From contig JBBCJC010000005.1 in NCBI GenBank assembly GCA_037189525.1, positions 32,001-96,000 on the forward strand: a DNA stretch of 64,000 nt, given 5' to 3'. Each line of letters begins with the position of its first letter. Position 1 is the stretch's first letter. Both the position numbers and the translations under genes were made by a program. Under the pieces are notes generated by a model, which was given only the letters and a program-made list of their open reading frames with translations, was not told the DNA's origin and did no database searches. Of the stretch, positions 14,337 through 19,957 are shown in pieces. This DNA comes from Gemmatimonadales bacterium (lineage in GTDB: Bacteria > Gemmatimonadota > Gemmatimonadetes > Gemmatimonadales > GWC2-71-9).

Positions 14337-15612
14337 CGAATCGCTGGATCTCGGCTCCCAAGGCCCGCAGGCGTTCGTCGATCCGTTCGTATCCGCGCTC
14401 GATCTGTCCCACGTTGTGGATCACGCTCTGGCCTTCCGCAGCCAGCGCCGCCAGCAGCATGGCCATACCGGCCCGGATGTCGGGCGACTCCACCACCCCG
14501 CCCCGGAGCGGCGACGGTCCCGAAATCACCGCGCGATGCGGGTCGCACAGCACGATCCGCGCGCCCATGCCGATCAGCTTATCGACGAAGTAGAGCCGCG
14601 ATTCGAACATCTTCTCGAAGACCAGCAGCATCCCGGCGCACTGGGTCGCCGCCACGATGGCAATCGACATCGTATCCGCAGGAAACGCGGGCCAGGGTCC
14701 ATCTTCGAGCTTGGGCACGTGGCCGCCCAGATCCGAGCGAATCCGCCGCTCCTGGTTGCGGTCGACGGTGAGCCGGTTCCCCTCCAGCCGAGGACGGATG
14801 CCGAGCCGGTCGAATCCGATCAGGGTGGCGCGGAGATCGTCGCCGCGGACGCCGTCGATGACCAGCTGTCCGTTGGTGACCGCCGCCAGTCCGATGAAGC
14901 TGCCGATCTCGATGTGATCCGGACCGATCTCATAGCTGGTCCCTTTGAGCGGCTTTCCGCCGTGAATCACATAAGTGTTGCTGCCGATTCCCTCGATCTC
15001 CGCCCCCATGGCCACCAGGATCCGGGCCAGGTCCTGCACGTGCGGCTCCGCGGCGGCATTGCGCAGCGTGGTGGTACCCTGCGCCATCACCGCGGCCATC
15101 AGCGCATTCTCGGTCGCCGTGACGCTCGGCTCGTCGAGGAAGATGTCGGCTCCGACCAGCCGCTTGGCCTCGATTTCGTACTTGTCACCCACCTCCACCG
15201 TGGCGCCCAAGGCTTCCAGGATCAGGAAGTGGGTGTCGACGCGACGGCGGCCGATCACGTCCCCCCCTGGAGGAGGCAGCGTGACCTGACCGAATCGCGC
15301 CAACAACGGCGCCGCGAGCAGGATCGAGGCGCGGATCCGGGCACAGAGCGCGGGGTCGAGTGGCTTGGAACTGACCCCGTGGGCATCGATCCGCACCACA
15401 TTGGGACCGGTCCACTCGGCCCGGGCGCCGAGATGTTCGAGCAGCGCGATCATCAGTTCGACGTCGCGGATACGGGGCACGTTACGGAGCTCGACCGGTT
15501 CGTCGGCGAGCAGGGTGGCTGCCAGGATGGGCAGCGCGGCGTTCTTGTTTCCGGCGGGGCGGACCGTTCCATTGAGCGGACGGCCACCTTGTACGACGAA
15601 TCGAGGAGGCAT
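14329..15612 (-). CDS. murA: UDP-N-acetylglucosamine 1-carboxyvinyltransferase (Asp-type)
   Basis: GNKNAALPIL, RASILL, SVTATEN, EPHV and PDIRAG motifs. The active-site loop reads PGGDVIG. Confidence 0.95.
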   Translation of the reverse strand: MPPRFVVQGGRPLNGTVRPAGNKNAALPILAATLLADEPVELRNVPRIRDVELMIALLEHLGARAEWTGPNVVRIDAHGVSSKPLDPALCARIRASILLAAPLLARFGQVTLPPPGGDVIGRRRVDTHFLILEALGATVEVGDKYEIEAKRLVGADIFLDEPSVTATENALMAAVMAQGTTTLRNAAAEPHVQDLARILVAMGAEIEGIGSNTYVIHGGKPLKGTSYEIGPDHIEIGSFIGLAAVTNGQLVIDGVRGDDLRATLIGFDRLGIRPRLEGNRLTVDRNQERRIRSDLGGHVPKLEDGPWPAFPADTMSIAIVAATQCAGMLLVFEKMFESRLYFVDKLIGMGARIVLCDPHRAVISGPSPLRGGVVESPDIRAGMAMLLAALAAEGQSVIHNVGQIERGYERIDERLRALGAEIQRFDD

Positions 15613-15692
15613 GGCCAACAACCTCGCCACCGGGCTAGCGGCCCGTCAAGGCGAGGACATTATCTTGTGAGGATGCGGACCATGAGGTGGAT

Positions 15693-16148
15693 ATGACGAC
15701 GGTACCCGGATGGGTCGGACCGACCATCGCCCTGTCGCTCGTGATCATCGCGATCGGCTTCATCTCGTTCATCGGCGCTCTGCTCTTCGCGGGCAAGAAG
15801 GCAGCCGATCAGGTGGAAAGCCTCGGCAAGGAAATCGGCGAGTTACGAAAAGAGTTGCACCCGACCATTACCGCGCTGAACGCCTGGGTCGGCTCGAGCG
15901 TCGAGGTGACCTCCGAGTTCAAGGACGAGGTGCGCGCGGTGCTCAAGTCCTCGCGCCGCCTCCGCAAGAGCGCCATGCGAGGCGCCTCCCGGGTCCGGGA
16001 TCGCCTGGAGGATCTGGACGCCCTCTACGAAGTCGTTTCCGCCGAGGTCGAGGAAACGGCGCTGACGGTCGCGTCCACGCTCCGCTCGGTTCGGAGCGGG
16101 ACGTCGGCACTCAGCCGGATCAAACGCTTCCTGGGACATCGCCGGTGA
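15693..16148 (+). CDS. Hypothetical membrane-anchored coiled-coil protein (DUF948/YoxC-like)
   Basis: N-terminal TM helix followed by helical repeats. GAGG precedes the ATG. Confidence 0.6.
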   Translation: MTTVPGWVGPTIALSLVIIAIGFISFIGALLFAGKKAADQVESLGKEIGELRKELHPTITALNAWVGSSVEVTSEFKDEVRAVLKSSRRLRKSAMRGASRVRDRLEDLDALYEVVSAEVEETALTVASTLRSVRSGTSALSRIKRFLGHRR

Positions 16149-17140
16149 GTCTTCGGCGCCTGCTGATTACGGGGGTCGTGCTCGGGTGTCTGGCGGCAGT
16201 CCTGCTGCCGGCCCCGGCCTACGCCTGGACCCATGGCACCCACGTTTTTCTGGGTGAAACGGTCCTGGCCAATCTGCACCTGCTGCCCTCCCATGTCGCA
16301 ACGCTGATTGCCGCGTTTCCGCACGATTTCCTCTACGGATCGATTGCGCCCGACACCTCGATTGCCAAACGCTATGTCCCGGCCGGCCGGCACTCGCACT
16401 ACTGGAATGTCGGCCAGGAAACGTTCGACCATGCCGAAACCGATGCGCTGCGGTCCTTCGGCCTGGGCTATTTGTCGCACCTGGCCGCGGACACGGTGGC
16501 CCACAACTACTTCATCCCGCGCCAGCTGCTCCTGACCAGCAGCACCCGGGCCATGGGGCACCAGTACTGGGAACTGCGGGTCGAAACCCACCTGACCGAC
16601 CGCTACGCGCGGCTGGCGCGCGACCTGATTCGGCGGGACCATTCGGGGTCGGACCTGCACCTCGAACGGATCATTTCGCCGACGCTGTTCAGTGTCAAAA
16701 CGAATCGGCGTATCTTTCGCAGTATCGTCCACCTGTCGGACACGAAGAGCTGGCAGCGCGCCATGCAGGCGGCGCGAGGGGTCAGCCGCTTTCTGCTCAC
16801 CGACGAGGATGTAGAACGCCACCTCGCCATGTCCTACGACGTGGTGATGCAGACCCTGGCCGCCATCAACGATCGAGGCGGAGTGGCGCGGGAATGGGAT
16901 CCGTCGGGCGAAGGCCCGCTGCGCCGCGCCAAACGGTGGCGGCGCGAAGCACTCTGGAAGGGCGGGCTCTGGGTCCCGGAGCATATGATCGAAGCCGCAG
17001 AAGAACGATTCGGGCTGCCGGAGCTGGATCTGGGCTTCTGGCAGGCGTCCAGAATCGAACGGCCCTGGATGCCGCTGATCGGCAAACCGGCCTTGTACGA
17101 CACACACACACCAGGAGCACTGATCGATGGGCAAGGGTGA
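16145..17140 (+). CDS. Zinc-dependent phospholipase C / S1-P1 nuclease fold protein, exported
   Basis: Signal peptide ending AYA, then mature N-terminus WTHGTH. Also GSIAPD, GYLSHLAADTVAH and HQYWE motifs. GTGA overlap with the upstream gene. Confidence 0.8.
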   Translation: MSLRRLLITGVVLGCLAAVLLPAPAYAWTHGTHVFLGETVLANLHLLPSHVATLIAAFPHDFLYGSIAPDTSIAKRYVPAGRHSHYWNVGQETFDHAETDALRSFGLGYLSHLAADTVAHNYFIPRQLLLTSSTRAMGHQYWELRVETHLTDRYARLARDLIRRDHSGSDLHLERIISPTLFSVKTNRRIFRSIVHLSDTKSWQRAMQAARGVSRFLLTDEDVERHLAMSYDVVMQTLAAINDRGGVAREWDPSGEGPLRRAKRWRREALWKGGLWVPEHMIEAAEERFGLPELDLGFWQASRIERPWMPLIGKPALYDTHTPGALIDGQG

Positions 17141-17234
17141 CCGGCGCAGTCGCAAGGGCAAGATCTTTCGGGGAACGACAGGCAAGAAGCGTCCTCGCGG
17201 CACCAAAAAGGCTGCGGCCCCGAAGAAGAGCTGA
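17127..17234 (+). CDS. thx: 30S ribosomal protein bTHX (Thx), not in the ORF track
   Basis: Translates MGKGDRRSRKGKIFRGTTGKKRPRGTKKAAAPKKS*, matching the Thx pattern [29 protein letters not shown] SD upstream and a hairpin downstream. Confidence 0.92.
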   Translation: MGKGDRRSRKGKIFRGTTGKKRPRGTKKAAAPKKS

Positions 17235-17236
17235 CC

Positions 17237-17278
17237 GATACGAGACGAGGGGCGAATCATCGCCCCTCGTTTCATATC
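17237..17278 (+). terminator. Hairpin terminator between thx and the convergent aminotransferase gene
   Basis: ACGAGGGGCGA-ATCA-TCGCCCCTCGT stem, extendable on both sides, with a short T tail. Confidence 0.65.
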
Positions 17279-17300
17279 CCACCGTCAATTCCGTTCGGCT

Positions 17301-18542
17301 TCAGCGCCCGGCCGACTCCGCCAGCTCGGCAACTCCGGCGACCAGCCGGTCGATCTCGGACGCATCGGTGTAACAGGCAACACCCGCCCGCACGATCCCG
17401 TGCTCGGCCTGCCCCAATCCCTCGATTACGCTCGATGCGTAGAAATCGCCATGCGAGGTGAAGACCGCCGCTTGGGCCAGATGCCGGGTCACCTGCTGCG
17501 CCGGCACGCCATTCAGGGTAAAGCCGAGCGTCGGAGTGCGCGAACCGTTCGGCGCGACGCCGTAGCGACGGGTGCCGCGAATGTTACCGATCCCGGTCCA
17601 GAGCCGTTCGAACAACGCCACCCCGCGGCGGTGCAACTCCTCGAAGGCAGTCGCGAGCGCGGCCCGGCGGCTCGCCTGCCCCGGCGCCAGACCGGCCAGA
17701 TACTCGAGCGCCGCGTGCGCACCGACGATGGCCTCGTGGCTGAGCGTGCCGGTCTCGAGACGCTCCGGCGCCGTATCGGGCGCGGGCTCGAGTTTCGGGA
17801 CCGCAACCGATTCGAGCAGTTCCCGGCGGCCGAAGAGCGCCCCCAGGTGCGGTCCGTAGAACTTGTAGGGTGAGCAGACCAGGAAGTCGCAGCCCAGCGC
17901 TTTGACATCGGGCAGTTGGTGCGCAGCGCCATGGACCGCATCGATGTAGCTGAGCGCCCCTCGCTCGCGCGCCGCGCGGCACACGGTGGCGACGTCGTTG
18001 ACCGTCCCGATGGCGTTGGAGGCCAGCCCCATTGCTACCACGCGGGTCCGATCGTTGATCGTCGCCACCAGGCGATCGAGATCCAGCGTACCCGTGGCCG
18101 GATCGAACGGAACCCGCCGGAGTACCAGTCCCCGTTCCCGCGCAATCGCGGCCCACGGCGCCACGTTGCCGTGGTGGTCGAGGTCGGTGACGACGAGTTC
18201 GTCGCCCGACGCAAAACCGTTGGCCAACCCGCGGCTCAGGTGGAACGTCAGCGTGGTCATGTTCTGCCCGAAGACGACTTCGTCGCTCGCGCAGTGGAAG
18301 AAATCGGCGTAGGCCTCGCGGGCCGCCTGGATCATCGCGTCCGTTTCGTGGCTGGTCGGATAATCCCAGTGCGTGTTGGCATTGTGCCGGGACAGGTAAC
18401 CGACCATCGCGTCGATGACCGACTGCGGTACCTGCGTACCACCCGGGCCATCGAAATAGGCAATCGGCGTGCTCCGGTATTCCCGGCGAAGCGAGGGAAA
18501 ATCAGCCCGGATCGATTCGACCGACCGAACGCTGGTGCTCAT
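17301..18542 (-). CDS. Class-V PLP aminotransferase, cysteine desulfurase-like (VC1184-type subfamily)
   Basis: YFDGPGGTQVP, LDHHGN, DAVH, CSPYKFYGPH and ETGT motifs. Confidence 0.85.
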   Translation of the reverse strand: MSTSVRSVESIRADFPSLRREYRSTPIAYFDGPGGTQVPQSVIDAMVGYLSRHNANTHWDYPTSHETDAMIQAAREAYADFFHCASDEVVFGQNMTTLTFHLSRGLANGFASGDELVVTDLDHHGNVAPWAAIARERGLVLRRVPFDPATGTLDLDRLVATINDRTRVVAMGLASNAIGTVNDVATVCRAARERGALSYIDAVHGAAHQLPDVKALGCDFLVCSPYKFYGPHLGALFGRRELLESVAVPKLEPAPDTAPERLETGTLSHEAIVGAHAALEYLAGLAPGQASRRAALATAFEELHRRGVALFERLWTGIGNIRGTRRYGVAPNGSRTPTLGFTLNGVPAQQVTRHLAQAAVFTSHGDFYASSVIEGLGQAEHGIVRAGVACYTDASEIDRLVAGVAELAESAGR

Positions 18543-19957
18543 GTCAGTGCCTTGGCAACGAGGTCTGAGACCGCTTTGGGGTCGGCCTTACCACGACTTT
18601 TCTTCATGACCTGGCCGACCAGGAATCCCATCAACTTGGCTTCGCCCTGCCGGTACCGTTCGACTTCGGCCGGATGGGCGGCAATGACCTCGCCGACCCA
18701 CGCCGCCAACGCATCGTCATCGCGCACCTGGCGGAGGCCGAGACGATCGATGACCGGGCCGGGCGCCTCGCCGGTTCGGACCATCTCGGCAAACACCTTC
18801 TTACCCGCCAGATGGCTGACCGCGCCATCGCGCACCAAGCCGATCAGCGCAGCGAGTTGTTCCGCGCCGACCGGGAACACACCCTGTTCGTTGAATCCCG
18901 GCAGCGCCTCGGTCGAGACCCAATTGGATGCCGCCTTGGGGTCTGCGCCGGACCGGACCACCGCCTCGTAGTAATCCGCCACCGCCTGCTCGGCCGTCAG
19001 TACCCGGGCGTCGTACGACGACAAGCCGTAGGTCTCTCCGAAGCGAACCCGCTTGGCCTCCGGCAGTTCCGGCAGCGCGGCGCCCTCGGCGGCAATCCAC
19101 TCGGCCCCGAGCACCAGCGGCGGCAGATCGGGGTCCGGGAAGTAGCGGTAGTCGTGGCTCTCTTCCTTGCTGCGCATCGGCTTGACTGTGCCGTTCGCCG
19201 CGTTGAACAGCAGAGTGACCTGCTCGACCGATCCGCCCGACTCGAGCACCGCCTGCTGGCGGGCTCGCTCGATGTCGAGCGCCCGCTCCACATTGGCGAA
19301 GCTGTTCATGTTCTTGAGTTCGGTCTTGGTACCGAGCCGCGACTCGCCCGGGCGGCGCAGGGAAATATTCGCGTCGACCCGCAGGCTACCCTTTTCCATG
19401 CTGCATTCGCTGACGCCGGCGTATACCAGGATCTGCCGCAACACGGTCAGGTAGGCACGCGCCTCTGCCGGACTCCGGAGATCCGGCTCGCTCACGATCT
19501 CGGCCAGCGGAATCCCGGTGCGATTGAGGTCCACGGCCGTCGCCCCCGGAATCCGGTCGTGGAGCAGCTTGCCGGCGTCTTCCTCCAGGTGCAGCCGGGT
19601 CACCCCGATCGCGACAGCGCCCCGCTCCGGACTCTCGCAGCGGACCGTGCCGCCCGTGGCCAGCGGCCGATCGAATTGGGAGATCTGATAGCCCTTCGGC
19701 AGGTCCGGATAGAAATAATTCTTCCGGGCAAAGATGCTCCGCTCGTGGACGGTACACCCCAGCGCCAGCGCCGCCCTGGTGCCGAGCCGGACCGCCTGCT
19801 CGTTCGGCACCGGCAGCGCACCTGGCAGGCCGAGACAGACCGGGCAAACGTTGGTATTGGGCAACTCGCCGAAGCCGGTCGAACAGCCGCAGAAGAGCTT
19901 GGAACGGGTGGCCAGCTGGACGTGGACCTCGAGACCGATCACGGTTTCCCAGGTCAT
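18539..19957 (-). CDS. gatB: Asp/Glu-tRNA amidotransferase subunit B
   Basis: VIGLEVHVQL, RKNYFYPDLPKGYQISQ, HLEEDAGK and DYRYFPDPDL motifs. Confidence 0.97.
   Translation of the reverse strand: MTWETVIGLEVHVQLATRSKLFCGCSTGFGELPNTNVCPVCLGLPGALPVPNEQAVRLGTRAALALGCTVHERSIFARKNYFYPDLPKGYQISQFDRPLATGGTVRCESPERGAVAIGVTRLHLEEDAGKLLHDRIPGATAVDLNRTGIPLAEIVSEPDLRSPAEARAYLTVLRQILVYAGVSECSMEKGSLRVDANISLRRPGESRLGTKTELKNMNSFANVERALDIERARQQAVLESGGSVEQVTLLFNAANGTVKPMRSKEESHDYRYFPDPDLPPLVLGAEWIAAEGAALPELPEAKRVRFGETYGLSSYDARVLTAEQAVADYYEAVVRSGADPKAASNWVSTEALPGFNEQGVFPVGAEQLAALIGLVRDGAVSHLAGKKVFAEMVRTGEAPGPVIDRLGLRQVRDDDALAAWVGEVIAAHPAEVERYRQGEAKLMGFLVGQVMKKSRGKADPKAVSDLVAKALT

Follow-up and report, generated by a model that had tools for sequence, protein, structure and literature searches.

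A 35-codon gene for the ribosomal protein bTHX, probably the last gene of a phospholipase C family operon, in a Gemmatimonadales bacterium

The small open reading frame (ORF) at positions 17127 to 17234 of the window, that is, of the whole 64,000-nucleotide stretch of Gemmatimonadales DNA that was analysed, is a real, ordinary gene (thx) for the 30S ribosomal protein bTHX, and close relatives of its product are labelled in databases already. Our best explanation, to which we give a probability of about 0.9, is that thx is the single bTHX gene of this genome and encodes an optional 30S protein, that it is probably the last gene in an operon with a phospholipase C (PLC) family gene, and that its overlap with that gene is most likely incidental. 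The features of the locus are as follows.

15687..16148, + strand: gene for a DUF948-like membrane-anchored protein (PF06103, 29 bits, below the cut-off of 37.2)
16145..17140, + strand: gene for a Zn-dependent phospholipase C family protein of 331 aa (PF00882, 62 bits against a cut-off of 26.8)
17092..17111, + strand: A/C-rich, G-poor stretch before the Shine-Dalgarno (SD) motif (A+C 0.75)
17113..17117, + strand: SD motif AGGAG, 9 nt before the ATG and inside the PLC-family coding sequence
17127..17140, + strand: PLC-family/thx overlap of 14 nt, with the PLC stop TGA (17138-17140) formed by the thx Gly4-Asp5 codons
17127..17234, + strand: thx gene, 30S ribosomal protein bTHX, 35 aa (family core, residues 1-25; variable Lys/Ala tail, residues 26-35), assigned from TIGR04560, PF17070, PDB Thx, and pN/pS
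17237..17278, no strand assigned: GC-rich hairpin between thx and the convergent desulfurase-like gene
17301..18542, - strand: convergent cysteine desulfurase-like gene (TIGR01976, 419 bits against a cut-off of 352)

Identity, conservation, and annotation of the small ORF

The 35-codon frame runs from the ATG at 17127, preceded by CAGGAG (17112-17117), to a TGA at 17232-17234 and is followed by a hairpin, all as described in the first-pass annotation, which had also named the product bTHX and proposed a search with the ribo_THX family model. That identity is borne out, since the peptide passes the cut-offs of both TIGR04560 (ribo_THX; 41.5 bits against a curated equivalog cut-off of 26, model positions 1-25 of 26) and PF17070 (Thx; 38.1 bits against a gathering cut-off of 29.7, positions 1-27 of 27). 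Counting against our explanation, the score for NF011339 (PRK14753) is 37 bits and below the curated cut-off of 58; this is probably a narrower, Thermus-centred model. The peptide also falls below the cut-off of PF17067 (RPS31; plant bTHXc/bTHXm), with 15.7 bits against 32.5.

With 15 K/R and a single D among its 35 residues, the peptide is strongly basic, and its alignment to solved Thx chains shows the conserved columns of the N-terminal GKGD...GK..RG..G..RP core from residue 1 onwards. The top PDB match is the Thermus thermophilus Thx (E value 3.3e-7), followed by plastid and mitochondrial bTHX chains. A profile made solely from 31 bTHX copies outside this genus and run on 95,503 six-frame segments of the genome ranks the thx frame best (E value 4.9e-10; runner-up, 0.72), and thx is the only bTHX match in the genome. 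AlphaFold2 predicts for the free 35-mer (21-row alignment) a single helix, of moderate confidence, at residues 9-15, with a pLDDT of about 80 over residues 1-20, a mean of 73, and a pTM of 0.35.

Compared with T. thermophilus Thx (PDB ID 1FJG, chain V), 19 of 24 core residues are identical, and the size class and the strong basicity are alike, as may be the predicted central helix. The differences are S8, K10, F14, T18, and K21 in place of T, R, W, Y, and Y, a Lys/Ala tail that is 8 residues longer, and the position of the gene, which here follows the PLC-family gene, whereas the Thermus gene follows S20 according to the available part of PMC3353972. The plant proteins bTHXc (PSRP4) and bTHXm (PF17067) match weakly over the common core (E values 0.003-0.24) and are described, in the accessible portions of PMC5694952 and PMC5737520, as sitting in the same h41/h42 pocket as other bTHX homologues; they differ in being nuclear encoded and organellar and in having a C-terminal extension that is longer and touches other ribosomal proteins.

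Conservation and synteny in relatives, which had been proposed as a check, are supported by the presence of thx in 17 of 21 same-genus genomes, on which the TIGR model and the lineage profile agree, and by a gene order that is kept across the genus. Run on all 41 relatives, the lineage profile returns the same 20 positives and no extra divergent copies. The four same-genus misses are probably assembly gaps, as the neighbouring PLC-family gene is absent or only partly matched in all of them and, in one (G010), the contig ends inside that gene. Over codons 2-21 of the 18 genus loci, pN/pS is 0.18 for the thx reading frame, against 2.6 and 1.4 for the two alternative frames (pooled pairwise values, the pairs not being independent), and thx is under purifying selection.

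The suggestion that annotation pipelines probably miss the gene is not supported. The exact peptide occurs on 15 contigs in a public protein collection that draws on NCBI, JGI/IMG, and Logan; 8 of 9 bTHX peptides that we looked up exist as called genes, and 5 of the 6 clusters of those peptides have a member named "30S ribosomal protein THX," "S31," or "bTHX." Close homologues bear Gemmatimonadota names, such as MBX3145816.1, "30S ribosomal protein THX [Gemmatimonadales bacterium]" at NCBI, which belongs to the same 90% cluster, is 91% identical, and differs only in the tail; its name comes from automatic annotation and not from a functional test. The consecutive accession, MBX3145815.1, is a PLC-family protein of the same cluster as that of the window. 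In the open-access literature, we found no paper naming bTHX in Gemmatimonadota, and the available parts of three papers describe bTHX as limited to thermophiles or a few phyla (PMC7782861, PMC5694952, PMC5737520). With the family curated and close relatives labelled at NCBI, the single thx gene matters little in itself.

Operon, overlap, and flanking elements

The stop codon of the DUF948-like gene overlaps the PLC-family start (GTGA), and the DUF948-like gene is syntenic in 17 of the 18 genus loci, being the probable first gene of a DUF948-like/PLC-family/thx operon. Thx would then be the last gene of this probable transcript, closed by the hairpin. A consensus scan of the + strand from 15000 to 19000 found no sigma-70-like promoter, which counts against our best explanation. 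The PLC-family gene is present in 40 of 41 relatives, and the arrangement of a divergent murA next to the DUF948-like and PLC-family genes (window positions 15687-17140) is kept across the order, which suggests a housekeeping role in the cell envelope for the PF00882 protein, not a toxin role.

Each of the 18 genus loci has an AGGAG, GGAG, or GAGG motif 6-9 nt upstream of the ATG, and the anti-SD was found in the 16S rRNA of this genome; thx would initiate at this SD of its own. In the genus, the mean A+C content is 0.69 over the 20 nt ahead of the SD zone and 0.41 further upstream (17 loci with enough DNA), and the start region of 17 genus loci has a folding energy of -10.3 kcal/mol, compared with -19.9 kcal/mol in control windows. 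The A/C-rich stretch is probably an unstructured ribosome landing region. The (CA)5 tract that had been pointed out before the SD motif is present at 17101-17110 and is one of only two (CA/TG)5 or longer runs in the 4.65-Mb assembly, but the run itself occurs in only 2 of 18 genus loci, ruling out a conserved element or a phase-variable repeat. It may be one local form of a generally A/C-rich, weakly folded start region.

The reported overlap with the 3' end of the PLC gene is real in this genome, where the SD motif and the first 14 nt of the thx ORF lie within the PLC-family gene, but it is not conserved as such. Among the 17 genus loci with a PLC-family gene on the thx contig, the overlap is 14 nt in 8 and 35 nt in 5, the genes abut in 1, and the remaining 3 have gaps of 1, 28, and 83 nt. 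Conservation of the PLC-family protein extends to an [ED]RPW motif near residue 310, and the tail beyond it varies in sequence and length, with a GC3 here of 0.64 against 0.80. In all 13 overlapping loci, a GGT codon of thx (Gly4 or Gly11), together with the GA or AA that comes next, provides the PLC stop codon. Most probably the overlap is incidental: the conserved part of the PLC-family protein ends about 60 nt upstream, and its frame would read into the thx start and halt at the first stop that thx supplies. Against this reading, the PLC frame enters thx in 13 of the 17 loci, i.e., more often than not.

The main alternative, which follows the concept of termination-reinitiation coupling, is that the overlap is functional, with ribosomes that end the PLC-family gene reinitiating at thx and thus tying the bTHX output to a membrane/lipid operon. 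The PLC stop does lie no more than 35 nt from the thx start in 16 of the 17 loci and inside thx in 13, whereas only 13 of 31 copies from other neighbourhoods have a stop in that frame within 35 nt; however, any gene that has lost its own stop would be expected to reach another one soon in any case, and the kin loci are not independent. Likewise, all 13 stops inside thx come from a GGT Gly codon, and the gene order is maintained across the genus, but the overlap length and the tail sequence vary freely, an SD-like motif is also found in 27 of the 31 copies at other neighbourhoods, and a sister-genus genome (G023) has the PLC-family gene without thx. Taken together, we regard coupling as unlikely and favour the incidental overlap.

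The hairpin downstream of thx has a folding energy of -30.9 kcal/mol (z score, -7.8), which none of 200 shuffles equalled, and by eye a clear hairpin lies within 70 nt past the thx stop in 12 of the 16 genus loci with enough DNA. It is probably a bidirectional terminator or a 3'-end stabiliser; a consensus terminator scan listed no terminators between 15000 and 19000, the hairpin included. It has no second copy in the genome and thus is not a repeat element, and as a known RNA it was rejected, with no Rfam family at the gathering score and only a sub-threshold match to a microRNA precursor.

Core residues and the putative role in the ribosome

In Thermus, bTHX occupies a cavity of the 16S rRNA in the 30S head, and its core fold touches helices h41 and h42, as described in the available parts of PMC5694952 and PMC5737520. 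Judging from these homologues, the basic peptide with its short helix at residues 9-15 would fill the rRNA cavity in the 30S head beside h41 and h42 and may help to fold or stabilise the head as an accessory component, with no structural necessity, and we infer that it would be incorporated into the 30S subunit here.

Residues G2, G4, D5, G11, K12, G19, and R22 are invariant in all 49 phylum copies, those of this genus included. The aromatic residues Y18 and Y21 of the Thermus protein are T and K here, which counts against our explanation. Position 18 is T, A, or S in 15 of 18 genus copies and Y, F, or H in all 31 other phylum copies examined, and the small residues could mean weaker binding. 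As the remaining 3 of the 18 copies have an aromatic residue at the same locus, the change at position 18 seems to have arisen in place.

The loss of Y18 and Y21 raises the second alternative, a diverging bTHX whose ribosome binding is lost or weakened and which serves as a basic peptide that binds RNA or the nucleoid in a generic manner. The small residue in most genus copies, the score below the NF011339 cut-off, and a 16S rRNA that carries no signature of thx would all agree with such a peptide, but they stand against the seven core residues invariant in 49 of 49 copies and the strongly purifying selection. The small residue at position 18 is also common in other phyla: a pattern scan for this variant, which selects for the small residue itself, gave T, S, or A in 119 of at least 120 loci among the matches listed, with titles including Desulfobacterota-type Deltaproteobacteria, Blastocatellia, Calditrichia, and others. 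We therefore think divergence away from the ribosome very improbable and retain an ordinary bTHX as the preferred reading. A chance origin of the frame, as a basic ORF of low complexity between genes, can practically be dismissed, as the shortness and K/R/G richness of the ORF and the 15.6 bits of composition bias in the outside-genus profile search are opposed by the family cut-offs, the PDB Thx match, the pN/pS, the profile rank, and the conservation in the genus, where the frame, start, and SD are kept in 18 genomes.

Distribution, mobility, and viral copies

The gene had been called patchily distributed, and this agrees with our counts: TIGR04560 matches occur in 42 of 301 genomes (14%) and 26 of 126 genera of the phylum sample, and the PF17070 cut-off is passed in 64 of 251 family genomes, about a quarter. 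A looser Pfam search (E value 0.05) gives 79 of 251, the 64 passing the cut-off and the rest being mostly short partial matches. Presence is mostly all or none per genus. The statement that ribosomes of this lineage carry bTHX can hold, in terms of gene presence, for the genus but is too broad for the family and the phylum. The tallies take in a few genomes flagged as unpublished (G204, G393, G331, G436, and G085), on which no conclusion rests.

Of the 55 genomes with a bTHX match among the genus relatives and the phylum sample, 49 were examined at the DNA level. None of the 31 outside-genus loci, one of them in G204, adjoins a PLC-family gene; two neighbourhoods are common (8 and 6 loci), and the neighbours are otherwise varied. 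In six loci of the most distant family sampled (L021, L022, L023, L025, L026, and L033), the gene after thx encodes an HU/IHF-type DNA-binding protein (PF00216, scored on L033). One further locus (L151) encodes a bTHX of 111 aa with a long Lys/Thr/Ser tail.

A comparison of the 3' 660 nt of the 16S rRNA between 11 thx-positive and 29 no-match family genomes (40 of the 81 with a 16S match) found no column that separates the two sets, the best frequency difference being 0.41, with the caveats that metagenome-assembled genomes may carry misbinned 16S genes and that completeness is just 57-87% for some of the no-match genomes. The thx-positive genomes are scattered over the low-resolution 16S tree. 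This null result is in line with a preprint (bioRxiv 10.64898/2026.07.03.736309), the available part of which describes the 16S architecture as almost identical with and without bTHX. The presence and absence of thx, which differ largely from genus to genus within one family and without a 16S signature, provide natural comparison pairs for studying the function of bTHX in bacteria without obvious heat adaptation.

The contig of the window carries, outside the window, an rRNA operon (L223; G000:C5:1-4530), whose 16S 3' part is 81% identical to the copy on contig C3, and the C3 copy is 98% identical to that of a same-genus genome. The GC content climbs from 0.44-0.59 to 0.68 just past this operon, which is probably of foreign origin and was joined on in assembly; a 16S copy of 78-83% is likewise seen in several other genomes of the family. 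This does not affect the thx locus, whose synteny holds across the genus.

In a sister genus, G023 keeps this order for murA and the DUF948-like, PLC-family, and desulfurase-like genes but has no thx among them, which fits an insertion or repeated loss. A search behind the PLC genes in 11 loci of other genera (L068, L069, and L071-L079) found no thx remnant (best E value, 0.1). These thx-free flanks lead to the tentative idea that thx was inserted behind the PLC-family gene in the genus ancestor and, more broadly, that bTHX is a horizontally mobile plug-in, with separate gains at many further sites in Gemmatimonadota without 16S change and carriage by phages; we hold this possible but rather doubtful. 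If it were true, sister genera with and without bTHX would allow direct testing of its role outside thermophiles.

With respect to phages, tblastn against 50,697 GenBank phage records gave no bTHX match, a comparison with PHROGs gave no family, and the main text of PMC6375957, which deals with ribosomal proteins encoded by viruses, showed 0 occurrences of Thx, bTHX, or S31 in a term search. DNA pattern searches for bTHX returned 3, 1, and 0 stretches, and none of the 3 pattern matches of a protein-based IMG/VR scan was confirmed as bTHX. On a 93.9-kb IMG/VR contig (G326), a 45-aa ORF (L200:3001-3138, + strand) passes TIGR04560 with 41.0 bits against 26, scores 28.1 with PF17070, just below 29.7, and is one of a series of small ORFs on the same strand, close to an HNH endonuclease gene. 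This is a possible phage-borne bTHX; a search of the contig for two terminase families found neither, and the viral nature of the contig rests on its IMG/VR label. A second stretch (L201:1048-3036, - strand) holds a 662-aa DUF4209-containing ORF that opens with about 17 bTHX-like residues (17.1 bits, below the cut-off), which could be a captured thx start or chance.
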